Source of the DNA: Eubacteriales bacterium
GTDB lineage: Bacteria; Bacillota; Clostridia; Oscillospirales; CAG-272
Reading direction: 5' to 3'
DNA: 64,000 nucleotides
NCBI GenBank assembly: GCA_045580085.1
Contig: JAZNND010000049.1
Span: forward strand, 1,144 to 65,143
A program made the position numbers and the translations under genes. How positions within the stretch are numbered: position 1 is the first letter of the stretch; each line of letters starts with the position of its first letter. Positions 26,055 to 38,116 of the stretch are shown here, one piece after another. Below the pieces are notes generated by a model. That model did no database searches. It saw nothing but the letters and a program-made list of their open reading frames with translations, and was not told the DNA's origin.

Positions 26055-26956
26055 TGCAATATTACCTTCTTTTGGCACTCAGTTGCCTTTTCGGCGGTGT
26101 GCGCCTCGGGTTCAATAAGCTCTATGTCAACAAGTACGGCTCAACGCTGAAAAGTGCCCTTTGGTTTCTCTTTCTTTGCTGCGGTGCCTTCTTTGTGATG
26201 ATGCTTTGTATTCAAAGAACGCTTGCTTTCTCCGTCTTTTCGGTGATACTCGCGCTCATCTTCGCCGTAATCAATGTCGGATGCACCCTCTTCGGGTTTG
26301 CTACGCTTGCCATCGGAAACGTTGCGACCTATAACCTGGTGCTCATGCTCGGCGGTATGCTTGTGCCCTTCCTTTACGGTGTTACCTTAGGCGGCGAACC
26401 TGTCACCCTCCCCAAGGCTATTTGTATGTTGCTCATCACCGCCGCCCTCGTGGTTGGCATGGAGCGTAAAGCGGGCGAAAAGTCCTCGAAAAAAGCATGG
26501 ATTTATTACGGATTGCTCTTTACCCTTAACGGCTTGGCTTGCATCGTGCTCAGCATTCACCAAACGCTACCTACGCCCTTTGGAGCTACCGCGGTAGATA
26601 CTACCTCCTTTACCATGCTTTACATGATCTTCACCTCGCTTTTGGCACTTTGTGCCTTTGTGGTGATTCGCTTGAAGAACGGCAAAGAGAAAACCGCGGT
26701 CAAAAGAGGCCCCGATATCGCCCTTTCGGCAGGATACGGCCTCTTTTACGGGCTCGCCAATCTCATAAGTGCTTTCTGCTTGCTTCATATCGAAACCTCC
26801 GCCCAGTTTCCCATTCTCACCGGCGGAAGCGTTATCATAGCGGGTGTGGTCGGTCTTTTCTTCAAAGAAAAAATCACGCCGCGCTTCTTAATCGCCGCCT
26901 CCCTCGTGATGGTCGGCACACTCCTTCTTCTCCCTTGGGGTGAAATTTTTGCATAA
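26054..26956 (+). CDS. DMT/EamA-like 10-TM permease, translationally coupled to the NanA-like gene
   Basis: The ATG overlaps the nanA TGA by 1 nt (ctgATGc). The 300-aa polytopic protein is a paralog-like match to the 5268..6164 product. Confidence 0.55.
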   Translation: MQYYLLLALSCLFGGVRLGFNKLYVNKYGSTLKSALWFLFLCCGAFFVMMLCIQRTLAFSVFSVILALIFAVINVGCTLFGFATLAIGNVATYNLVLMLGGMLVPFLYGVTLGGEPVTLPKAICMLLITAALVVGMERKAGEKSSKKAWIYYGLLFTLNGLACIVLSIHQTLPTPFGATAVDTTSFTMLYMIFTSLLALCAFVVIRLKNGKEKTAVKRGPDIALSAGYGLFYGLANLISAFCLLHIETSAQFPILTGGSVIIAGVVGLFFKEKITPRFLIAASLVMVGTLLLLPWGEIFA

Positions 26957-26964
26957 ATAAAAAA

Positions 26965-27012
26965 GAAGCTATTTCAACGCCATTGATTTGCGTTTGAAGT
27001 AGCTTTTTTTAT
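26965..27012 (+). terminator. rho-independent terminator
   Basis: gaagctatttcaacgc pairs with gcgtttgaagtagctt (one bulge, one wobble) and is followed by TTTTTTT. Confidence 0.65.
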
Positions 27013-27037
27013 TTTATTATTACATTTGTGGTACACT
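27009..27037 (+). promoter_or_regulatory. weak candidate promoter for recombinase gene (TTATTT-17-TACACT with TGn)
   Basis: An extended -10 (TGgTACACT) is present, but the -35 is poor. Confidence 0.3.
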
Positions 27038-27076
27038 AAAGAACAAACAAGGCTAAAAAAGAAAGGATTTGTTTTT

Positions 27077-27916
27077 ATGTATACCGTTTCAAATGAGATG
27101 ATTTTATCGTTTAAGCAATGTCTGCTTGAAAATGAACGTGCCACAGCTACTGTGGATAAATATTTGCGAGATGTCAACACTTTCGTGATATGGCTTGCGG
27201 GAAGGCTGCTTCATAAATCACTTGTGCTTGATTATAAAAAGTATTTAAGCGAACGCTATGCCGTTCGGAGCGTTAATAGTATACTATCGTCTTTGAACGC
27301 CTTCTTTTCATTTCTTAACCGGAATGAGCTTCGCGTGAAGACGCTGAAAGTGCAACGTGAAATTTTTTCGTCTTCCGATAAAGAACTAAGCAAAACAGAA
27401 TATGAACGTTTGCTTTCTGCCGCTAAATCCAAGAAAAATGAGCGCCTCTATCTTTTGATTCAAACAATTTGCGCTACAGGTATTCGTATTTCCGAGCTTC
27501 GCTTTATCACTTGCGAAGCAATCGCAAACGGTTATGCCGATGTTAATAATAAAGGAAAACGCCGCCGCGTTTTTATACCGCGTATGCTGTGCAAAATGCT
27601 TGCGGTATATGTCAAAGATCAGAAAATAAAAAAAGGTTCCGTCTTCGTCACTAAAAACGGAAAACCGCTTGATCGTTCCAACGTTTGGAGCGATATGAAA
27701 AAGCTTGCCAAGAGTGCACATGTTTCCGCAAGTAAGGTTTTTCCCCATAATCTTCGGCATCTTTTTGCGCGCACCTACTATTCTGTTCAAAAAGATATCG
27801 TTCGCCTCGCTGATTTGCTCGGGCACACAAGCATCAACACAACACGCATCTACACAGTTGAAAGCGGTGAAATTCATCGTCGCCATATCGAACGCCTTGG
27901 CCTTTTGCGATGTTAA
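27077..27916 (+). CDS. site-specific tyrosine recombinase (XerC/D / phage-integrase family)
   Basis: 279 aa from the ATG at 27077 (GAAAGGA upstream). Has an N-terminal SAM-like core-binding domain and a catalytic set ATGIRISEL (R), NKGKRRRV (K), HNLRHLFA (HxxR), LLGHTSINTT (H) and RIYT (Y). Confidence 0.9.
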   Translation: MYTVSNEMILSFKQCLLENERATATVDKYLRDVNTFVIWLAGRLLHKSLVLDYKKYLSERYAVRSVNSILSSLNAFFSFLNRNELRVKTLKVQREIFSSSDKELSKTEYERLLSAAKSKKNERLYLLIQTICATGIRISELRFITCEAIANGYADVNNKGKRRRVFIPRMLCKMLAVYVKDQKIKKGSVFVTKNGKPLDRSNVWSDMKKLAKSAHVSASKVFPHNLRHLFARTYYSVQKDIVRLADLLGHTSINTTRIYTVESGEIHRRHIERLGLLRC

Positions 27917-27940
27917 CCACATAATAGTGATTATGTGGTA
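27916..27940. repeat. left inverted repeat (IRL) of candidate invertible switch; lox/dif-like core site
   Basis: ACCACATAATAGTGATTATGTGGTA. It starts on the last base of the recombinase stop codon. It is internally palindromic except for the central AGTG. Confidence 0.85.
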
Positions 27941-27971
27941 GAATGTTCGAAAATTAAAATAATATGAACAA

Positions 27972-28000
27972 ATTATAGCACTTTAGAAAAGAGAAGTCAA
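27972..28000 (-). promoter_or_regulatory. near-consensus sigma-A promoter inside the switch, currently pointing toward the recombinase gene (OFF for the giant gene)
   Basis: The minus strand reads TTGACTtctcttttctaaagtgcTATAAT. The -35 is at 28000..27995, the -10 at 27977..27972, the spacer is 17 nt, and there is a TGn extended -10. Confidence 0.75.
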
Positions 28001-28122
28001 CCTTTTTCCCTAAAAAAATCAATTAAAATTTCAAAATTTACATATTAAGCCCCCATATCTTTTTTCGCCATCAAATTTCTGGGATATTGTTTTTGTCATA
28101 AAGATATTTTTAATTTTGGCAA

Positions 28123-28147
28123 TACCACATAATCACTATTATGTAGT
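28123..28147. repeat. right inverted repeat (IRR) of candidate invertible switch
   Basis: TACCACATAATCACTATTATGTAGT is the reverse complement of IRL with one mismatch (A at 28145 where G is expected). Its central CACT is inverted relative to the AGTG of IRL. Confidence 0.85.
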
Positions 28148-28251
28148 GTTTTCCGAGAGTGGTTGATTCGAAAATATGAAAATAAGACTTATGTGAATGT
28201 GCATCACATTTGCATCAAGGGTATCATATAAAACTCAAAAGGAGAAAAGAC

Positions 28252-28338
28252 ATGAAAAAAATTATTTCGGGCTTTCTGGCAGTTTTAATGGCGGTTATGG
28301 TTTTTCCGTTTGCCGCATTGCCGTTAGACGCTTCTGCG
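28252..28338 (+). other. Sec signal peptide of giant protein (no lipobox Cys)
   Basis: KK n-region, hydrophobic core, and an ASA-A cleavage-type site at residues 27-30. Confidence 0.7.
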
Positions 28339-31300
28339 GCTGAAGCGGACACTGCTTCGCAAAATGCGCGTAGTGCAAATTATGCCGCGCAAGCGACTTC
28401 AGCAGAGGGGGAACCGATTGACGTATGGGACGGCACGGTTGCATCCGGTTTTGAGTACGGAAGCGGTACGGAAGAAGATCCTTATATCATCGCCACCGCG
28501 GAGCAGTTGGCATATTTATCAAAAATATCTGCTTCTAATTATTGCTGGGACTATTACTCTTTGGCGACCAGCATAGATTTGAATGGAAAAACATGGACTC
28601 CAATTCAAAATTTTTGTGGTTTTTTTGAAGGGAATGGCTATACTATTAGAGGCCTTTCTGTTTTAGAACCTATAAACGGAACTGTGGGACTTTTTTCTAC
28701 TTTGGGTTGCTACCTTCATATCGATGGTGGCAATGCAGGTACTGTAATCCAACCATGCGAGATTAGCAATCTGACGATTGAAATAAGCAGTATTAGAATC
28801 GCATATGATTGTTTGGATGTAGGTGGTTTAGTAGGAACAATGTATTGTGGAACGGTGAAAAATGTTTCTGTGTTTGGCGATATAAGCATTAGTAGTACAT
28901 CTGTAAATGTCGGGGGATTGGTTGGCAACTTTACAATTCCAAGTGATGCGCGTGGCAGTACTTATAGAGATATAATAGATTCTTCTTATTCGGGAAACAT
29001 TTCTGCAAGTGCAACGGGAAGCAGTGCAGGAGGAATTTGTGGCCTAATTTCCAATGCCAATATGAATACGTGTAGGTCAGCCGGAACTATTCAAGCAGAT
29101 TGTTCTGGTGGCCTTTGCGGCACAGCTACAGATTGTCTGGTGCTTAATTCGTATTCTAAAGCTACAATATATGGAAGAGGGGGTTTTTCTCCCAAAAGCG
29201 GTGGCTTATTTGGGGTAACTGAGAATTCTTATATTAGGAATTGCTATGCTTCAGGAGATATCAATGTTATTGCCGTTTGGGATTCAGTTGTATGGGCAGG
29301 CGGGGTGATTGGAGAAAGTAAAAAAGGAAGTGTGGAAAACAGCTTTTCTTTCAATAATTCTGTTTGGGGTGTAATAGAAAGTACAGCACAATCAACGGTC
29401 CGTGAAGCGAAAGTGGGAAAATTAATTGGAGACTCTTCCAATACATCCATTTCCTATTCTTATGTAAAAAGTAATACATCAATTCAACGTTCCGGACATC
29501 AAGTACATGATAATGGATGCAAGGATGATACGTATAGCCATCCTACCTTGACGACTCCTTCCAATCAAGTGGAAACAGGAACGATTTCTTCTGTTACTAA
29601 TGCCTTCATTTTCTCCACCCTTGGTTGGGATCGCTCTGTTTGGGCTCTTGACTCGGGCGAGTTGCCGCATTTGAAATGGGAAGATAAGCTTGGTTGCACC
29701 ACTCGCTTTATCAAGGACGGAAAAGTAATCGGCGTTGAATACAAAGAAGTAGATTACGGCGCAACCTATACGTGCAAAGCCGATCCCATTACCGGATACA
29801 ACGCCGGAGAAATCAATACCAAGGTCTACGCAGATAATAGTTTTTACACCATTGAATATACACCGAAAAACGATTGCAAATTGACGGTCGTGTGCAAGTC
29901 AACTACTACCGATAAAGTAATTGATGAAAAAGTTTTTACAAAAGGTGTATTTGACAAAGATTATACAATTAGTGCCGATCAACTGAATGTTACGGGATAT
30001 GAACGCGAGAATACCGCTGTCACCGTTACCATGACAGCGACCGAAAAAACGGTGGATGTTTATTTTACGCCGGTTGAGTCCGAGATTATAGTAACGCATG
30101 TGTACTATGACAAAGATGGAAACGTAGAAAGCCGCGAAACGGATCCTGTCCGTAAAATAAAATATGATGAGACAGTGACCGTATACCCTCGTACAAGAGA
30201 GGGCTACACGACATCGCAGGAGTCAATTGAAATTTCAGGTCAAACGGCATATAACGGCGGAACGCGCAAGTATGAAAGAGAATTTTATTATAATACCAAA
30301 ATTGTTACATATACGATCAAGTTCGTGGATGAAAACGGCACAGAAATAAGAGAGCATGAAGTAATTGAGCAGATAGAGGGCGAAAGGATTGAGCTTACCG
30401 CCGATACTGCGCCAAAAATCGAAGGATATTCTCTTGATGCTGACTCCCTTTTTGCAGAAAAGGCGATGGAGAACACCACGAAAACAATTAGGTATACTCA
30501 CAATAAATATGACGTTTATATCGAGTACGTGGTGGTGGATTACGATGGTAACGAGGATAAGTTCTGTTCGGATCCTGTAGCAACGGATGTTCCTTACGGT
30601 GACACAATAGAGGTTGCTTTAGATGATAAATATAGTAATTTGAACGGCTTTAATGGTAAAATAAAAATTACGCTTAATAAGTCCGAAGTTTTGTATCAAG
30701 AAAATGGCGGGCATTATGAGAAAGTGGTGCTGACTGACGAAGGGTGCATTGTTACCGTGGAAACACAGTATGAAGATGATGCCGATGCTACCACAGTATC
30801 TAAACCAGAGGTGGTTCACCACGGCGGACAAGTTCTGATTGAGCCTTCTGCCAAAGAGTTTTATACCGTTTATTTGTATGAAAAGCGCGAGAATGGTAGT
30901 TTGATTCAAGTAGGGCCTTGCGGCGAAGGCGTTTTGATCACCGATATCCAAAGCAATCGCTATTTTGTGGTGAAATATCAAAGAAATACCATTGCCTCAG
31001 GTGTGTGCGGCGATTTTATGCTTTGGACTCTCTATGAGGGAAATAATCTTTTGAAGATTAAGGGTACCGGTGACATGTATGATTATGCACAAGGAGAAGC
31101 TCCTTGGTATAATTATGCGGAAGAAATTTATGAGGTTCAAATTGCAGACGGTGCAACCTCCATCGGTTCTTATGCGTTTGACGGATGCGTAAATCTCACC
31201 AAGCTTCAAATCGGTGACAGTGTAACGAGTATTGGTTCACGCGCTTTGGAAGGCTGTTCGTCACTCCGCACATTAAGCCTCCCTGCGTCTTTGCAAAAAG

Positions 31301-34300
31301 TAGGAACCGCAGCCTTTGCCGGTTGTGCTCAATTAGAGGCGTTCACGCTTTCTTCGGATAATACATCGTTCGTATTGGATGGCGGTGCGCTTTATCACCT
31401 TGAAAGCAAAGCGCTGATCGCTTATCCGGCATCTCGAACGGGCTCGCTCTTCACGCTTCGAGAAGGGATCGTGGCGATAGCACCCTATGCTTTTTACGGT
31501 AATAAAAGAATTTCTTTTTTGAAGATCCCGCAACCTGTTCTCAAGGAGGACGGAAAGCCAACCTTTGAGTCCTTAAAAACCATCGGTGCGTATGCTTTTG
31601 CAAACAGCTACTTGAATACACTGGAACTTCCGTCTTCCGTAACGGAAATTGAGGAATATGCTTTTGCCGATGCTTATTGTACGAAGATCATCATTTATGG
31701 TGATTTGAGCTCCGTCGGAGACGGTGCTTTCAGTACAAAATGGTACAGCAATTTAAAAATCTATTTCAAGGGCAATGCGCCACTTAGCGTTGGTGAAAAG
31801 ATTTTCGGCGAAGCCAATGAAAAAATTTGCATCTACTATGCTTCCAATAATACCACTTGGCAAGATCAGATCACATATGATACCGTAGATTTAATGAAAT
31901 ATCCTTACTGGAATGATTATTTGGCATACGGTCACAGTAATATGGCGAGCGTTTCCGTTTATAACAGCGGAAATGAAAGCATATATGCCATTTTCGTCAT
32001 GTGCGACAAAACTCCGATTGAAGGTGTGAAGGTCTCCTTCGGTTCCGCCGATCCCAAAGTGACGGATGCAGACGGATTTGTATATTTCACCCATACAAGC
32101 ACAGTCACACAGGTTACTCTATCCGTACAAAAGGAAAATTATTATAGCATATACGACGTTTCATGTACGTACAATTTAAAATCGTTGGGCGTGGATTATA
32201 TCGATCTTGATACAAATTCCTCCGTCAAAGGAATTTCCAGTTTCGGCAATGATATTGCTAACGATACACAGAGCATCAACAACAAATACGACGGAACCAT
32301 TCCGATTTTGGTCAAAGGTGACACGGAGTTTGAGATCACAGCCATGCACTTGGTACAATGGGTATACGATGCCCAAAATCCTTCTTCCGAGCCAATCAAG
32401 AAGGTTCTTCAAACGGTGAAAGCCGGGGATCGTGATCTGGATGCGGATGGATACTGTTTGTTTAAAGTGGAGGCATCCGCATTTTCCTACAAGAAAAATG
32501 AGAATTTGCCGATTGCTGTGGTAATGGAAACAACATCCGGTGAAGAGCCTGTTGTAGAGTTTTTGAACTTAGAGGTTATCTCTGTTTCTTTGGAAATCAG
32601 TTTTGATGATTTGTTCGGTGATGCTAAACCGATATCGTTAGGGGACCTCGGACTTGATTTTTTGGGCGGCGTTTCGATTGATCTTGAAGAAGAAACAGAA
32701 TCAAGCAAGCTGAAGTTTAAAATCGTAAATGATGAAATTTACATTACTTATGATGTGGATTCCGACAAGATCTGGAAAGGTATCGATGCTTTTGAGGATA
32801 ATGTAATGTCTTTGACAGGTTCCGATCATCGGAAACTCAGCGAAATCGTTGAAAGTGCCAACACGCGCGGCAATCAATTTTTGAAAGAGGCGGCGGAGGG
32901 TACGAATAAACGGATGCAAAGGATGGGGGCATCGAGTAAAGTAAACAGCAATTTTTCCATTGAACCTATCTTGAGTGCAGGTATTGCGATCAAACTGACG
33001 AATGACGGCATAAGATCAATACGTACGGAAATGAAGCTCGGCGTTGCTTTTGGAGCTGAATGGAATGCTAATATTACGGTTGTATACGTTCCCATCACAT
33101 TCGGTGCGGAAATAAAGCTTGAGGCATTGGTTGATGTCCCCGATTTGGAGTATGATTTTTCCAAAAAGAAGCTTGGCTTTTCCGACAGCTTTTCGCTTGA
33201 ACTCGGCGGCTCGGTGAAAGTAAATGCCGGGCTCGGCTTCTCCTATCCCGTTGCTGCGGCACATTTAGGCTTTTATGGCAAATGCAGTGCAAAAGTTGAG
33301 ATAGCTCTCGGCAAAACAACTTATTTTGAATATTTGATGCTTTCCGGAGAGCTTGGTGTTTATATTAAACTTAAAGTCGGACCGTTTTCAGTCTTGGATG
33401 AAGAGTATGCACTTCTAAAAGGAAAATATGAGAAGTGGTATACCGAGAACGGCGTCTTAGTGCCGCGTGAACAGATTATGCTATTATCCGAGGATGATCC
33501 GTCAGGTGCTTTTGGAACCTATAATGGCATAGCAATCTATGACCTGTCATCTTACAGTCTTAGAAATTCTACAGCTGAACTCGATCTTGACGATGTGGAA
33601 TGGGGAGAAGAATTCGGCTTGACGGTGGAAAACAATACCTACGTTTATGCGGAACCGCAAATAATCGATTGCAACGGCATTTACGTGGCAGTATATATGG
33701 CACAAGCGGAAGAGCGCGCCGCGGCTGATGCTCAATGCTTGATGTACCGTATATACGATGCGAAAACAGAAACATGGTCGGAAGCTTCTCTCTTGGAAAA
33801 CGACGGCATGAGCGATTCGACTTTTTCTGCAAAATTCCATAACGGGAAATTGTATATCGCTTATGCGCATGCCAACAAAGTGATTGGTGAAGTTTCCGAA
33901 GAGAATGAGACCGAAGCCATCATTGATATGGCGAGAGCGCAAGACATTGCCATTTGTGTTTTGAATCCGCAAACAGGAACGGTGGAGAATATCACTGCTA
34001 TTTCCTCCGATGATGTTTATGAATTTTTGCCCGTTTTGCAGGAAGTGAACGGAACGCTTTATTTGGCGTGGATGTCGAATGATAAAGCAGATGCCCATTC
34101 CGTTTTCGGTATGAACACGAACAACAGTATTTGGGTAAGTACGCTTTCCGGCGGCGCATGGAGTGCACCTAACTGCTTGTTGTCGGATTGCAACCCAATT
34201 GCCGAAATGACACTTGGAAGCTATCAAAACCAACCTTACATCGCGATGATCTTGGATGACGATGCCGATTATTATACCTCACTTGACAGGAACGTATATC

Positions 34301-37300
34301 TTTTAGACACGGAAGGCAATGTGACATTCATCGATTGCGGCGGTATGGGACTTATCTCCTTGCAAAGTGCGGTGGTGGATGGAGAAGAAACATTTGCTTT
34401 CCACAGCAAAGGAAATATTCTCTATATGGATTCTAAAGGTGAATTTTCGGCATGGTACAGTGGAGCGCATGGTGCCGGCATTGATTACAAGCTTCTTTCT
34501 TTAACGGAAGACATCACCATGCTTTTGTGGAGTGAAGCTTCTTTGGAGAATGAGAAGGGGGAATCCATCTCAAAGGTTTATTTTGTACTGCATGAAGACG
34601 GTGGCGAATGGGGAGATGTGAGAGAACTCTTGACGGCATCCCAAAATATGATTTCGTTCGCTGCTACAGCCAACAACGGTGATGTTCAGGTAATCTATGT
34701 CTCGGCACTCATTCAGTCAGCTGAAAATGAGCTTATCATGCTTGGAAACATGTATTCCGATTTCTTTGATATGGATTACAGTTTCTTAGTAGAGGCAACG
34801 GATTTGGTATACAATTCCGAGGCGAACACGATTTCTTCCAAAGCAACGGTCATTAACACCGGTGTAAAAGAGATCAAACGGCTTGCCGGCATGGTTGCAG
34901 TGCTTGATTCTCAAAGCACTGTACGAAAGGTAAAGAAGTATTATCCCATCGGTCTTTATGATGTTAGTATTGGTTACGGTGAAACCGACAGCTGGGATAT
35001 GACTGCTGTTTTGCATCCGGATTGGGTGCAAAGTGAATGCGAGGTCGTCTTTACTGTTTTTGAGGGAAATGAAGAGGATTATCTTGCATATGTTGAACTT
35101 TTGAATCAAGCCATCGAAAACGGCGAAAGTGGCGAAAATATGGGAAGCAGCAGTAGCGGTAGTATCACGGATAAGAATGAAACAAACGGGATGCCGGCAA
35201 CTGCAAATAATGATTTTTATATCAACGGCGAACATATTATCGTTGGCGAAGCCGAATACTTATCGCTTAAGGTAGGAAAAAGCGGTAATGGGATGATGGG
35301 AATGGGTGAAAATGTTTTGAAGGTCTATAAAATCCATGAAGACGGCAAGGAGTTGATTTACAGCGAAAAAATTACGATACATGATGCTCGCCAAATGCAA
35401 TACTTCTTGGTAGAACTGCAAAAAGATTTTTACAGCGAAACAGATGCAGTTTTCGAATGCGTCATCGAGATTAGCAACACTGAGGATGTTGATTTGAGCA
35501 ATAATGTAGTGAGCATCCATGCGGAAAAGCCCGAAAATGCGGCACCAACCCTGTACGATAAAACGGCAATCGCGGCTGAGCTTTCGGCGTATTTCGGAAC
35601 CTTCGATAAATTCAAAGGGGAAGATTTGACTTTGGATATCACCCCCAACGGAAACGGCATATACGGTGTCACGGAGTCGGAGGGCGTGGTTAACAAGGTG
35701 GGTACCGTGGAAGAAAACGGGGTTCTCCATGCTACGGTTTCCGCAGAACAGCTTTCTCAGCTGTCTCTCGGTGAGCATGAGCTTCGTTTCCTGTTTAGCA
35801 CAAAGAACGGCTTTATTGATTGCGTTTTCAATCTCACCGTGATAGATAGCACTCCGATTCCCGTAGAGGGCACCGTTTCGATTCTTGGAACGCCTTCTCG
35901 CGGCAATAGGGTAACAGCGGATATATCCGGAGTCAGCACAAAAGAATTGACATATGAATGGATTATCAATGGAGAAGTGCTTTCAACGGAAAGTAGCTAT
36001 CAGATCACCAATAAAGATCTAGGCAAGGAACTTGTTGTTCGCGTTAGCGGTACCGGTTTTCATCAAGGCACTTTACAAAGCACCCCTGTTTATGTAGAAA
36101 AGCTACCGAGAACCTTGGGTGCTTTGAAAATCTCTTCTGCCATGGATTCTTCTGTTTCTTTGAAAAACATGTTCTATGTCGGTGACGGTGAAATCTATTA
36201 CGGATATTCGCAAGCGAACGATCCTTATGCGGTAACTAATTGGCAAGAGAGTACAAGCTTTGTGCTTCCTGAGGTAGGACAATACTTCTTCTTCGCTAAG
36301 GTTGCCGACAGTGCGACGTATCAAGATTCTTATACCGAAGGACTCTCGTATTCGTATCATAATGACAGCGGTCTGACCGTTGCCGGCTCTACCTTGTCCA
36401 TTCAAAGCGATATTACGATCAATTATTATGTTGATGCTTCCTTCTTGGAAACATATGATAATGTGTATATGGTATTTGCGCACACGAAGCATTTGAATGG
36501 TGGTGGAACGATTGATACGTTTGAAACGATTACCAATTATACCATTCGTCAAAGCGGAAAGTATATTGTTTTCTCTTATGAGGGAATTGCCGCAAAAGAG
36601 ATGGGCGATATGATTCGCGCTGTTGTATATGCGGAAAATGGCGAAACTTTGTATTGCGGTCCCACCGATTATTACAGCGTTTCCGCCTATGCATACAATA
36701 GAATTCAAAATTCTGCGGATGAGAAGATGGTGACTTTGGCAATTGATATCTTAAATTACGGAGCGAGTGCACAGATTTACTTTGGATACAATGAAAAGAA
36801 TCTTGTGAACAGCGAGTTGACACAAGAGCAAAAAGATTACGTAAAAGACGAAGTGCTTGTGGATAATGTTAAAGAATATATTCCCGGTGCGAATGCAAAT
36901 GTAGTGTTTGCAGGTTCTGCATTGCTCTTGGAGGAAAAAGTAGCCATTAAATACTATTTTAATGCCGAAGAATACCTGAAAACGCATTCGGATTTGAGTG
37001 ATCTCCAACTTGTGATTACCTTTGCGGACCAAACCGTTGTTATTCAAGGTGATGCCTTCGTTCATTCTGAGAAGAGTATTTATTATGCGGTTCTGGATGA
37101 ATTGGCAGCAAAGGATATGCGTGTAATATGTCGCGCAACGTTCTATTCCGATTACATGGGTGCGAGTGAGATTGAGCAAAGTGAAACGATGGTTTACAGT
37201 GTTGAGTCTTATGCGTACAGCATGCAAAACAGCACAAATGCGAATATGGTATCGCTAGTAAATGCGATGATGATTTACGGTGATGCCGCAAAGGATTATA

Positions 37301-37308
37301 TAGGATAA
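28252..37308 (+). CDS. giant secreted surface/adhesin-like protein (3018 aa): signal peptide, GLUG repeats, MucBP-like repeats, BspA-type LRR, large uncharacterised C-terminal part
   Basis: One uninterrupted ORF. I preferred the ATG at 28252 (AAAAGGAGAAAAGAC-ATG) to the TTG at 28210. The N-terminus MKKIISGFLAVLMAVMVFPFAALPLDASA/AEA is a Sec signal peptide. See the sub-features below. Confidence 0.9.
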   Translation: MKKIISGFLAVLMAVMVFPFAALPLDASAAEADTASQNARSANYAAQATSAEGEPIDVWDGTVASGFEYGSGTEEDPYIIATAEQLAYLSKISASNYCWDYYSLATSIDLNGKTWTPIQNFCGFFEGNGYTIRGLSVLEPINGTVGLFSTLGCYLHIDGGNAGTVIQPCEISNLTIEISSIRIAYDCLDVGGLVGTMYCGTVKNVSVFGDISISSTSVNVGGLVGNFTIPSDARGSTYRDIIDSSYSGNISASATGSSAGGICGLISNANMNTCRSAGTIQADCSGGLCGTATDCLVLNSYSKATIYGRGGFSPKSGGLFGVTENSYIRNCYASGDINVIAVWDSVVWAGGVIGESKKGSVENSFSFNNSVWGVIESTAQSTVREAKVGKLIGDSSNTSISYSYVKSNTSIQRSGHQVHDNGCKDDTYSHPTLTTPSNQVETGTISSVTNAFIFSTLGWDRSVWALDSGELPHLKWEDKLGCTTRFIKDGKVIGVEYKEVDYGATYTCKADPITGYNAGEINTKVYADNSFYTIEYTPKNDCKLTVVCKSTTTDKVIDEKVFTKGVFDKDYTISADQLNVTGYERENTAVTVTMTATEKTVDVYFTPVESEIIVTHVYYDKDGNVESRETDPVRKIKYDETVTVYPRTREGYTTSQESIEISGQTAYNGGTRKYEREFYYNTKIVTYTIKFVDENGTEIREHEVIEQIEGERIELTADTAPKIEGYSLDADSLFAEKAMENTTKTIRYTHNKYDVYIEYVVVDYDGNEDKFCSDPVATDVPYGDTIEVALDDKYSNLNGFNGKIKITLNKSEVLYQENGGHYEKVVLTDEGCIVTVETQYEDDADATTVSKPEVVHHGGQVLIEPSAKEFYTVYLYEKRENGSLIQVGPCGEGVLITDIQSNRYFVVKYQRNTIASGVCGDFMLWTLYEGNNLLKIKGTGDMYDYAQGEAPWYNYAEEIYEVQIADGATSIGSYAFDGCVNLTKLQIGDSVTSIGSRALEGCSSLRTLSLPASLQKVGTAAFAGCAQLEAFTLSSDNTSFVLDGGALYHLESKALIAYPASRTGSLFTLREGIVAIAPYAFYGNKRISFLKIPQPVLKEDGKPTFESLKTIGAYAFANSYLNTLELPSSVTEIEEYAFADAYCTKIIIYGDLSSVGDGAFSTKWYSNLKIYFKGNAPLSVGEKIFGEANEKICIYYASNNTTWQDQITYDTVDLMKYPYWNDYLAYGHSNMASVSVYNSGNESIYAIFVMCDKTPIEGVKVSFGSADPKVTDADGFVYFTHTSTVTQVTLSVQKENYYSIYDVSCTYNLKSLGVDYIDLDTNSSVKGISSFGNDIANDTQSINNKYDGTIPILVKGDTEFEITAMHLVQWVYDAQNPSSEPIKKVLQTVKAGDRDLDADGYCLFKVEASAFSYKKNENLPIAVVMETTSGEEPVVEFLNLEVISVSLEISFDDLFGDAKPISLGDLGLDFLGGVSIDLEEETESSKLKFKIVNDEIYITYDVDSDKIWKGIDAFEDNVMSLTGSDHRKLSEIVESANTRGNQFLKEAAEGTNKRMQRMGASSKVNSNFSIEPILSAGIAIKLTNDGIRSIRTEMKLGVAFGAEWNANITVVYVPITFGAEIKLEALVDVPDLEYDFSKKKLGFSDSFSLELGGSVKVNAGLGFSYPVAAAHLGFYGKCSAKVEIALGKTTYFEYLMLSGELGVYIKLKVGPFSVLDEEYALLKGKYEKWYTENGVLVPREQIMLLSEDDPSGAFGTYNGIAIYDLSSYSLRNSTAELDLDDVEWGEEFGLTVENNTYVYAEPQIIDCNGIYVAVYMAQAEERAAADAQCLMYRIYDAKTETWSEASLLENDGMSDSTFSAKFHNGKLYIAYAHANKVIGEVSEENETEAIIDMARAQDIAICVLNPQTGTVENITAISSDDVYEFLPVLQEVNGTLYLAWMSNDKADAHSVFGMNTNNSIWVSTLSGGAWSAPNCLLSDCNPIAEMTLGSYQNQPYIAMILDDDADYYTSLDRNVYLLDTEGNVTFIDCGGMGLISLQSAVVDGEETFAFHSKGNILYMDSKGEFSAWYSGAHGAGIDYKLLSLTEDITMLLWSEASLENEKGESISKVYFVLHEDGGEWGDVRELLTASQNMISFAATANNGDVQVIYVSALIQSAENELIMLGNMYSDFFDMDYSFLVEATDLVYNSEANTISSKATVINTGVKEIKRLAGMVAVLDSQSTVRKVKKYYPIGLYDVSIGYGETDSWDMTAVLHPDWVQSECEVVFTVFEGNEEDYLAYVELLNQAIENGESGENMGSSSSGSITDKNETNGMPATANNDFYINGEHIIVGEAEYLSLKVGKSGNGMMGMGENVLKVYKIHEDGKELIYSEKITIHDARQMQYFLVELQKDFYSETDAVFECVIEISNTEDVDLSNNVVSIHAEKPENAAPTLYDKTAIAAELSAYFGTFDKFKGEDLTLDITPNGNGIYGVTESEGVVNKVGTVEENGVLHATVSAEQLSQLSLGEHELRFLFSTKNGFIDCVFNLTVIDSTPIPVEGTVSILGTPSRGNRVTADISGVSTKELTYEWIINGEVLSTESSYQITNKDLGKELVVRVSGTGFHQGTLQSTPVYVEKLPRTLGALKISSAMDSSVSLKNMFYVGDGEIYYGYSQANDPYAVTNWQESTSFVLPEVGQYFFFAKVADSATYQDSYTEGLSYSYHNDSGLTVAGSTLSIQSDITINYYVDASFLETYDNVYMVFAHTKHLNGGGTIDTFETITNYTIRQSGKYIVFSYEGIAAKEMGDMIRAVVYAENGETLYCGPTDYYSVSAYAYNRIQNSADEKMVTLAIDILNYGASAQIYFGYNEKNLVNSELTQEQKDYVKDEVLVDNVKEYIPGANANVVFAGSALLLEEKVAIKYYFNAEEYLKTHSDLSDLQLVITFADQTVVIQGDAFVHSEKSIYYAVLDELAAKDMRVICRATFYSDYMGASEIEQSETMVYSVESYAYSMQNSTNANMVSLVNAMMIYGDAAKDYIG
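28650..29450 (+). other. GLUG-motif repeat region of giant protein
   Basis: Recurrent G-G-[LIV]-x-G motifs about every 25-30 aa: VGGLVGTM, VGGLVGNF, AGGICGLI, SGGLCGTA, SGGLFGVT, AGGVIGES. Confidence 0.6.
29690..30850 (+). other. MucBP-like beta-repeat region of giant protein
   Basis: Four to five repeats of roughly 70-90 aa with the pattern x-V-x-Y..D..G..I........G......P.I.GY (for example YTIKFVDENGTEIREHEVIEQIEGERIELTADTAPKIEGYSLD). Confidence 0.5.
31000..31870 (+). other. BspA-type leucine-rich repeat (LRR_5-like) region of giant protein
   Basis: Repeating ...I.IGDSVTSIGSRALEGCSSLRTLSLPASLQKVGTAAFAGC..L... and TIGAYAFANSYLNTLELPSSVTEIEEYAFAD units. Confidence 0.7.
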
Positions 37309-37314
37309 AAAAGA

Positions 37315-37342
37315 GGAATGCCGTATACTTGTACGGCATTCC
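37315..37342 (+). terminator. stem-loop after giant gene (no T-run; possible attenuator/processing site)
   Basis: ggaatgccgta (37315-37325) pairs perfectly with tacggcattcc (37332-37342). It is followed by CGAACC rather than a U-tract. Confidence 0.4.
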
Positions 37343-37363
37343 CGAACCTAAAGGAATCTATGT

Positions 37364-38116
37364 ATGATTGAACAAATTGATCTTGGCTTTTTTGAAATCA
37401 GCTTATACTATTTTTTTCATGTATTAGGATTTGCCACTGTTGCGGCTTTTAATGTTTGGTATGGTAAGAAATACGGTATCTCGTGGCATAAAGCACTTAT
37501 CTTTACGGCTATCGTCTACAGTTTGACTTACCTATGGATCCATGTTCAATTTTGGATTGAAACCGGCTTCAAGATTTGGGGCGGTCAAAACATAGTGAGG
37601 GGTTTTGTATACGTACCCTTGATAGCTTATCCTATAGCGCGATTAATGAGAATGCAATGGAGAAAAACTTGTGATTTTATTGCGCCGTGTGTTTGCATTG
37701 CGCAAGGTGTCAGCCATGTGGGGTGCATTTTCCCGGGGTGTTGTCACGGATATCCGTGGCAATGGGGTATATACAACAACAGCTTGGGCGTGAGAACATT
37801 TCCGGTTCAGCTGTTGGAGGCTGCAACGGCGTGGATCATTGTTTTTGTTATTGTCTACCGCGCCTATGAAAAAAAATATGCGTCGGATGGGGTTTCCTAT
37901 CCTTTGATGCTTTTTCTGTTTGGCAGTACGCGTTTTTTGTGGGAATTTATGAGAGATAATGATAAGATCTTTTTAGGTTGTTCTTCGTTGTCTTTTCATG
38001 CACTTTTTATGGCGGCGGTAGGAGGTGCTTTTTTGCTGATCTTGTCTTGTCGAGAGAAGCGAACGGCGAAATTAAACAAAAAACTATGCCGTAGAAAACA
38101 AAAAAAGAGAAAATAG
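37364..38116 (+). CDS. Lgt (prolipoprotein diacylglyceryl transferase) family paralog, divergent
   Basis: 250 aa, polytopic. CDFIAPCVCIAQGVSHVGCIFPGCCHGYP aligns by eye to the Lgt block D-F-I-A-P...G-R-x-G-N/C-F-x-N-G-E/C. FPVQLLEAATAWIIVF matches P-x-Q-L-Y-E, and GSTRFLWEFMRDN matches R-x-x-x-E-F-x-R. Confidence 0.7.
   Translation: MIEQIDLGFFEISLYYFFHVLGFATVAAFNVWYGKKYGISWHKALIFTAIVYSLTYLWIHVQFWIETGFKIWGGQNIVRGFVYVPLIAYPIARLMRMQWRKTCDFIAPCVCIAQGVSHVGCIFPGCCHGYPWQWGIYNNSLGVRTFPVQLLEAATAWIIVFVIVYRAYEKKYASDGVSYPLMLFLFGSTRFLWEFMRDNDKIFLGCSSLSFHALFMAAVGGAFLLILSCREKRTAKLNKKLCRRKQKKRK

Follow-up and report, generated by a model that had tools for sequence, protein, structure and literature searches.

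A probable promoter-inversion switch between an Xer-like recombinase gene and a giant adhesin-like gene in an Eubacteriales bacterium, and its family in Clostridia

Organization of the locus

The DNA analysed here, called the window throughout, is a 64,000-nucleotide (nt) stretch from an Eubacteriales bacterium (GTDB lineage Bacteria; Bacillota; Clostridia; Oscillospirales; CAG-272), taken from contig JAZNND010000049.1 of assembly GCA_045580085.1 (positions 1,144 to 65,143 of the forward strand). Our subject is a short segment of non-coding DNA within it that lies between a gene for an Xer-like tyrosine recombinase and a gene for a secreted, adhesin-like protein of 3018 amino acids (aa). The segment is bounded by inverted repeats and holds a predicted promoter, and the whole is probably a phase-variation switch (an invertible element, or inverton) that controls the giant gene and was captured with its promoter pointing away from it. 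The features are listed below with their window coordinates.

27077..27916, plus strand: Xer-like tyrosine recombinase gene, presumed invertase, 279 aa, with Pfam matches to Phage_integrase and SAM_1
27916..27940, no strand: left core site (left inverted repeat, IRL), with arm ACCACATAA at 27916-27924, centre TAGTGA at 27925-27930, central four bases (N4) AGTG at 27926-27929 and arm TTATGTGGT at 27931-27939
27941..28122, no strand: putative invertible segment, 182 nt between the 25-nt arms and 208 bp from centre to centre, AT-rich, non-coding
28000..27972, minus strand: predicted promoter, with -35 element TTGACT at 28000-27995, a 17-nt spacer, TG at 27980-27979 and -10 element TATAAT at 27977-27972
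28123..28147, no strand: right core site (right inverted repeat, IRR), with arm (T)ACCACATAA, centre TCACTA at 28133-28138, N4 CACT at 28134-28137 and arm TTATGTAGT
28148..28251, plus strand: fixed leader, with Shine-Dalgarno sequence AGGAG at 28240-28244 and no promoter-like site
28252..37308, plus strand: cargo gene for the 3018-aa secreted adhesin-like protein, with its ATG at 28252 and not at 28253, behind the AGGAG at 28240-28244

The recombinase gene is transcribed toward the switch, and its open reading frame, stop codon included, ends at 27916, so that one base of the stop codon is shared with the left site. The encoded protein scores 94.5 bits against PF00589 (Phage_integrase; cut-off 27.1) and 24.5 bits against PF02899 (cut-off 22.3), which places it in the tyrosine recombinase superfamily, and its nearest solved structure is XerD (1a0p; E 1e-17). 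Its best NCBIfam matches are Xer models, all of them far under their cut-offs (XerA, 132 against 220; XerD, 123 against 330; XerC, 112 against 335; XerS, 68 against 267), and the models of FimB/FimE-type invertases are under cut-off too (PRK09870, 26 against 221; PRK09871, 24.5 against 222). The catalytic R, K, HxxR, H and Y are all present, with ATGIRISEL, KGK, HNLRH, GHTS and RIY pairing with their equivalents in XerD 1a0p, and the reading frame is intact. This adjacent enzyme is presumably the invertase. A scan of viral contigs with the window recombinase returned no relatives, and the best match among phage records was only 40% identical.

The two 25-nt repeats (27916-27940 and 28123-28147) are complementary at 24 of 25 positions (96%) across 182 nt of AT-rich, non-coding DNA. 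Such a pair around a short non-coding segment was not equalled in any of 200 simulations, which modelled the surrounding 2.2 kb as a first-order Markov chain and in which the best 25-nt repeat with a gap of 50-400 nt reached 21 of 25. Each arm is moreover a palindrome about four bases, ACCACATAAT-AGTG-ATTATGTGGT on the left and ACCACATAAT-CACT-ATTATGTAGT on the right, and by its layout each repeat is a complete tyrosine-recombinase core site of the 9-6-9 form (ACCACATAA / TAGTGA / TTATGTGGT on the left). Because the two centres are mutually reverse-complementary, the arrangement is the one that gives inversion and not deletion. The motif ACATAAT-N4-ATTATGT occurs twice in the whole 64 kb, both times at the switch, with up to two mismatches allowed (chance expectation 0.13). 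E. coli dif, GGTGCGCATAA-TGTATA-TTATGTTAAAT, has CATAA-T-N4-A-TTATG in common with the window site.

Inside the segment, a consensus scan located a minus-strand promoter, TTGACT-17-TGcTATAAT, which matches 11 of 12 consensus positions and carries the TG of an extended -10 element, and which is the sole strong promoter-like site within 26800-28400. Transcription from it is predicted to start near 27965 and to run toward the recombinase gene, the giant gene lying in the opposite direction. No plus-strand promoter-like site of at least 9 of 12 came up in 27941-28251 in the same scan, and no terminator-like site was found on either strand of 27916-28251 in either orientation of the segment. A sequence-only reading of this DNA had described the repeat pair, the single base shared by the recombinase stop and IRL, the leftward extended -10 promoter and the lack of a fixed promoter ahead of the giant gene, and all four descriptions agree with what we obtained. 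An Rfam search of 26500-29000 gave nothing but sub-threshold snoRNA noise. A terminator-like hairpin does lie on the minus strand within the recombinase gene (27637-27662), about 300 nt downstream of the off-state promoter; it was considered as the end of an antisense RNA and dropped, as it is not conserved in 31 relatives and is probably due to chance.

Related loci and conservation of the sites

Loci and contigs that carry related recombinases are denoted here by L-numbers. A scan of one genome per species yielded 42 loci encoding relatives 52-64% identical to the window recombinase, almost all in Clostridia/Oscillospiraceae metagenome-assembled genomes (MAGs) from animal and human guts, and a protein search gave at least 119 further relatives of 279-286 aa and 65-68% identity among the matches listed. 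A common anatomy, in which the recombinase stop codon is followed by a site, a promoter-bearing segment, a second site and a cargo gene, is found in about 35 related loci from Clostridia MAGs and Monoglobus, with recombinases 47-68% identical. The adjacency of recombinase and site is strictly conserved in the family: where enough downstream sequence was available, nearly every locus had its first site 6-31 nt behind the last recombinase codon, with larger distances in L024 (78 nt) and L013 (158 nt). The cargo gene invariably comes next after the right site, in the same orientation as the recombinase gene. An isolate-derived record, that of Monoglobus pectinilyticus (recombinase 50% identical), has the same sites, ACATAAT-TTTG-ATTATGT and its partner with CAAA at the centre, with 252 nt between 22-nt arms.

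The half-site consensus from 140 half-sites is (A)CCACATAAT, that is (A)CC-ACATAAT, with seven positions 96-100% conserved, and both window sites match all 14 conserved core positions, their centres being exactly complementary and their inner arms complementary at 11 of 11 positions. The central N4, by comparison, takes 22 different values in 35 loci and is palindromic in none, and in all 35 it is the exact reverse complement of the N4 of the partner site. Recombining partners need matching overlap regions and the asymmetry of the overlap sets the orientation, so this covariation is what is expected of a working pair of sites. The family yields a precise site definition: two copies of CCACATAAT-N4-ATTATGTGG whose centres are inverted, immediately behind a gene for a 279-aa Xer-like protein.

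The promoter is conserved along with the sites. About 30 related loci have a single equivalent promoter either where the window has it or at the mirror position, with one near-consensus TTGACx-17-TGnTAtAAT per segment. Of the distinct loci examined, about two-thirds have it on the minus strand at a distance of 54-77 nt from the left site (64 nt in the window), and the others have it at the mirror position on the plus strand; once all segments are turned with the promoter rightward they align end to end.

Most relatives also carry, inside the segment and about 50-60 nt upstream of the -35 element, a hairpin AGACCAATG...CATTGGTCT followed by a short T-run. It has the form (A)GACCAATG - 7-20 nt - CATTGGTC(T) (L001, 6991-7024; L003, 6934-6967; L083, about 2135-2170), and compensatory changes are seen in four of eight hairpin pairs (GACCGG/CCGGTC, GACCGAT/ATCGGTC). 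The hairpin could be a terminator that shields the cargo from recombinase read-through, or else a protein-binding palindrome.

Two variations on this anatomy were observed. Several loci have three sites (L006, 6850/6883/7135; L011, 1092/1355/1388; L022, 1178/1441/1474; L024, 6903/6935/7206; L028, 4432/4694/4727; also L034), the extra one lying 32-33 nt from one end of the segment, which is the left end or the right end depending on the locus. Arrangements of this kind are what inversion at one or the other of the tandem sites would produce, giving a switch of more than two states. The second is found on the Pusillibacter faecalis megaplasmid pMM59_01 (L044, 4824-5143), where the stop codon of a 47.6%-identical recombinase is followed by a repeat, 268 bp, a second repeat and a gene for an S-layer-homology protein; the repeat is unrelated (TCCTATAGACAAAAACAACATTTCGT) and a second, partial copy of it is present on the left. 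Judging by these repeats, site specificity has diverged within the wider recombinase family.

Inversion in the relatives

Inversion of the segment is observed directly among the relatives. The clearest case is that of L083 and L084, metagenome contigs from different samples that encode an identical recombinase protein (P0020; 66% identical to that of the window). The upstream flank is the same in both (100% over 1852 nt), the downstream flank nearly so (99.3% over 959 nt), and the 247-nt piece from site to site is 100% identical but inverted; two further contigs are in the L084 state (L085, L088) and one is in the L083 state (L089). The same pattern is seen between related genomes, with L009 and L010 having colinear flanks that are 89% and 88% identical around a site-bounded segment that is 92% identical but inverted, and with colinear flanks around a segment inverted at equal or higher identity also in L001/L002 compared with L003 and in L011/L028 compared with L022/L024.

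A further contig, L061 (JGI 3300024268 Ga0257090_10213608), holds both orientations. It runs from the recombinase gene through the left site and the segment to a recombinant site, ACTACATAAT-GAGA-AATATGTAGT, which is joined to the reverse complement of the left flank (2323-2402), making it a fold-back contig. This junction is exactly the left junction predicted after inversion, and both orientations are recorded in one sample. The parental sites have just a 12-nt exact run in common, which is too short for a mistaken crossing by the assembler. Together with the inverted segments between colinear or identical flanks, the junction indicates that the family flips in nature. A further sign of flipping is that many contigs break at the switch or within it (L016, L021, L029, L030, L062, L064, L073). 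L087 encodes the same recombinase protein as L083, and in it (1647-2165) the left site and about 20 nt of segment are followed by unrelated DNA with a DUF2971 gene and no second site; it is presumably a rearranged, locked copy.

These observations bear on two explanations in which the repeats have no part in promoter inversion. The palindromic repeats might be operators or RNA hairpins that involve no DNA rearrangement, for example attenuators around a divergent promoter, since each arm is a 10-bp palindrome able to fold and the region folds better than shuffled sequences (z about -5). The low folding energy is, however, simply due to the long inverted repeat, and the stems are AT-rich and lack T-runs. 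Operators or hairpins would also need no inverted N4 between the two copies, and they leave the inversion of segments between colinear flanks unexplained, and we regard this explanation as very unlikely.

The repeats might instead be ordinary Xer/dif-type sites, which either serve to resolve chromosome dimers or are the scar that a dif-integrating element left behind. The recombinase is best matched by Xer models, and CATAAT-N4-ATTATGT is common to the window site and to E. coli dif. Against this, the recombinase misses every Xer equivalog cut-off by a wide margin, dif is a single-copy site and integrated elements are flanked by direct repeats, whereas the centres here are inverted in 35 of 35 loci, lie 190-266 bp apart and always enclose a promoter. 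Some genomes, furthermore, have several copies (L016/L029, L008/L039), and the segment is inverted between the otherwise identical contigs L083 and L084. This explanation has, in our judgement, scarcely any chance of being correct.

Proposed mechanism and its weighing

Promoter inversion at the window locus would proceed by steps that draw on the anatomy above and on the established behaviour of tyrosine recombinases. The recombinase, presumably as a tetramer on four equivalent ACCACATAA half-sites, would synapse the two dif-like core sites, and strand exchange at the borders of TAGTGA/TCACTA would invert the intervening 208 bp. With the element as captured, the sigma-A-type extended -10 promoter would fire leftward through the left site and antisense into the 3' end of the recombinase gene, and as the giant gene has no promoter of its own it would be off or expressed at a basal level only; any effect that the antisense transcription has on the recombinase is a matter of speculation. 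Inversion would bring the promoter to 28063-28091, which is also where the sequence-only reading had placed it, and transcription would start near 28098 and continue across the right site and about 154 nt of leader into the 9-kb gene. The flipped state would join GCGATGTTAACCACATAATAGTGATTATGTGGTA to TTGCCAAAATTAAAAATATC.

Several observations weigh against such a switch being active in the window, and the first of them concern this copy itself. The direct support for inversion comes from the relatives, and the window copy is presumed to flip still. The window recombinase is on record in one contig among the matches listed in the protein search, an exact look-up of it gave no match, and the 29-mer of the window promoter had 0 matches in a metagenome scan (as did a 45-mer of the L009/L010 segment). 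The inner length between the 18-nt cores is 190 bp in the window, the shortest of a family range of 190-266 bp (median 221), and 27941-28122 lacks the hairpin that most relatives conserve. Activity of the TTGACT/TATAAT element is predicted from consensus matching. Nothing terminator-like was found to separate the giant gene from the recombinase gene, and read-through may therefore make the "off" state leaky. For several relatives, most assemblies are in a single orientation, and switching may thus be rare or biased. As to the cargo, no LPXTG motif and no C-terminal hydrophobic or membrane anchor were found in the 3018-aa protein, and its location and anchoring at the surface are putative.

Some of these points would fit a fossil or locked switch, one that has the anatomy of an inverton but does not flip in this lineage, leaving the giant gene silent or dependent on read-through. 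The window has the shortest inner segment of the family and has lost the conserved hairpin, the organism is represented by a single assembly, and a decayed relative with one site only does exist in L087. A dead switch would nevertheless be expected to gather changes in its sites, recombinase and promoter, and their intactness counts against this reading: the sites are perfect at the 14 core positions, with exactly complementary centres and inner arms complementary at 11 of 11, the recombinase frame is intact with its catalytic residues, and the promoter matches 11 of 12 positions with the TG. We consider a locked switch unlikely and a phase-variation switch that still operates on the giant gene probable.

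Cargo genes and genomic context

The 3018-aa protein has an N-terminal signal peptide, a GLUG motif, a MucBP domain and BspA-type LRR_5 repeats, together with a weak CBM_X2-like match that is under Pfam's cut-off, and these features support its description as a secreted, adhesin-like protein. In many relatives the cargos are surface proteins, with SLH, cohesin, dockerin, LRR_5 and Big_2 domains, a pectate-lyase-like adhesive domain or Listeria-Bacteroides repeats, and by their domains they match the LRR_5/MucBP/GLUG protein of the window.

The signal peptide of the giant protein has no lipobox cysteine. Past the stop codon of its gene there is a strong 12-bp hairpin (37314-37343) with a T-run on the minus strand only, and 20 nt further on a 250-aa gene begins (37364-38116) that has a Pfam LGT match and is below the NCBIfam Lgt cut-offs. 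The GC content of the 27-38 kb region, which holds the recombinase gene, the giant gene and this weakly Lgt-like gene, is 39-45%, compared with 43-52% on either side, where housekeeping genes are found (DHDPS, an EamA-like transporter, MutY). The low-GC stretch at 27000-38000 of the window may be an acquired island.

Many relatives (L045-L089) have a recurring context typical of mobile elements, in the order TnpV, (DUF6809), helix-turn-helix protein, recombinase, switch and cargo. The cargos in this context include ABC transporters, SPFH/zinc-ribbon proteins, a YspA SLOG protein and TetR-like regulators, and a PADLOC scan of the relatives' cargo proteins returned generic ATPase matches only. 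The TnpV context with its varied cargos makes the switch module look portable. L016 and L029, two contigs of one MAG, share an identical recombinase 3' end and both break off 18 nt past it, which points to several copies in one genome. It is conceivable, although we hold this as a tentative and rather less likely extension, that the module is a self-contained, horizontally portable phase-variation cassette derived from Xer/dif that confers ON/OFF control on any gene that follows it, from adhesin genes in chromosomes to the varied cargos of TnpV-type mobile elements, with possible feedback from its orientation and insulation by the hairpin. In such a cassette the off-state promoter, reading antisense through the recombinase gene, may damp further switching, and in the relatives the hairpin ahead of the promoter would keep read-through from the recombinase gene out of the cargo.

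Comparison with known systems

The window switch belongs to a large and barely characterised Clostridial family, of a switch type that is itself known. The sequence-only reading had taken it for an inverton, and it gains comparative support from the anatomy shared by about 35 loci, from promoters that face both ways among the relatives and from the two states of L083/L084. Its logic is that of E. coli fimS, as had been suggested, in that a promoter sits in a short invertible segment between inverted repeats, the control exerted on a surface structure is ON/OFF and a tyrosine recombinase gene lies immediately upstream and is transcribed toward the switch. The likeness does not extend to the enzyme, which by its NCBIfam scores is Xer-like, the FimB/FimE models giving it about 25 bits where about 221 would be needed, and there is one recombinase, not two. 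The fimS element has 9-bp repeats and a 314-bp segment, whereas the window sites are 9-6-9 dif-like cores with palindromic arms and the segment is of 208 bp.

Xer/dif systems (XerC/D-dif, XerS-difSL, XerH-difH, XerA-dif) resemble the window switch in the recombinase fold, the catalytic set, the CATAA...TTATG core and the two inverted arms around a short centre. In XerS and XerH the site is beside the gene, as it is at the window switch. The family differs from these systems in having two inverted sites around a promoter, in occurring in several copies in some relatives and in performing inversion, not resolution.

A relation to the C. difficile cwpV/RecV switch had also been proposed and stands as a loose resemblance only. 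Both are Clostridial, involve a tyrosine recombinase and an inversion of about 200 bp upstream of the gene for a very large cell-surface protein, and are seen in genome sequence mostly in the OFF state. They differ in kind, since the cwpV inversion region holds no promoter and is proposed to form a terminator in the OFF transcript (PMC2784873), whereas the window segment holds a promoter and has no terminator-like site in either orientation, and is thus not a switch of the terminator type. The cwpV switch has 21-bp imperfect repeats, and its recombinase is not described as adjacent to it (PMC2784873). By analogy, the closest precedent for an Xer-like enzyme beside the surface-protein genes that it switches is Xer1/vpma of Mycoplasma agalactiae, in which the Xer-like recombinase gene adjoins surface-protein genes and inversions switch the one that is expressed (PMC2268961). 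There, expression is moved among six genes of a multigene locus, whereas the window element would be a two-site, two-state promoter flip that serves one gene.

A 2025 survey of the hCom2 gut community describes an inverton group 139 with an invertase group 35, comprising 33 invertons, 32 of them in Clostridia, in 17 strains (PMC11892184). Nearly all members of group 139 are beside a tyrosine-type recombinase, flipping was seen in read data, and the example geometries, a repeat of about 25 nt with about 205 bp between and one of about 13 nt with about 227 bp between, fit the family of the window switch (PMC11892184). The window family, compared here by geometry, host and adjacency, is probably inverton group 139, and the survey gives no site anatomy and no dif-like reading (PMC11892184). 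The suggestion that this combination may not have been described is probably only half right: a matching Clostridial group was catalogued in 2025 (PMC11892184), and the literature searches yielded no account of a dif-like site anatomy or of covarying centres, nor anything specific on Clostridia invertons beyond that survey.

Significance

Phase variation through promoter inversion is understood in detail in Bacteroides and E. coli, but scarcely in the Clostridia that account for much of the gut community, and a precise site definition lets such switches be found in assemblies without read data. The dif-like core could represent a simple route by which an Xer gene with an adjacent site became an invertase module. 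In uncultured Clostridia, as the family suggests, expression of giant BspA-LRR/MucBP adhesins, S-layer-homology proteins and cellulosome-type proteins would be heterogeneous, and such heterogeneity affects how adhesion, phage sensitivity and immune recognition are read from metagenomes.

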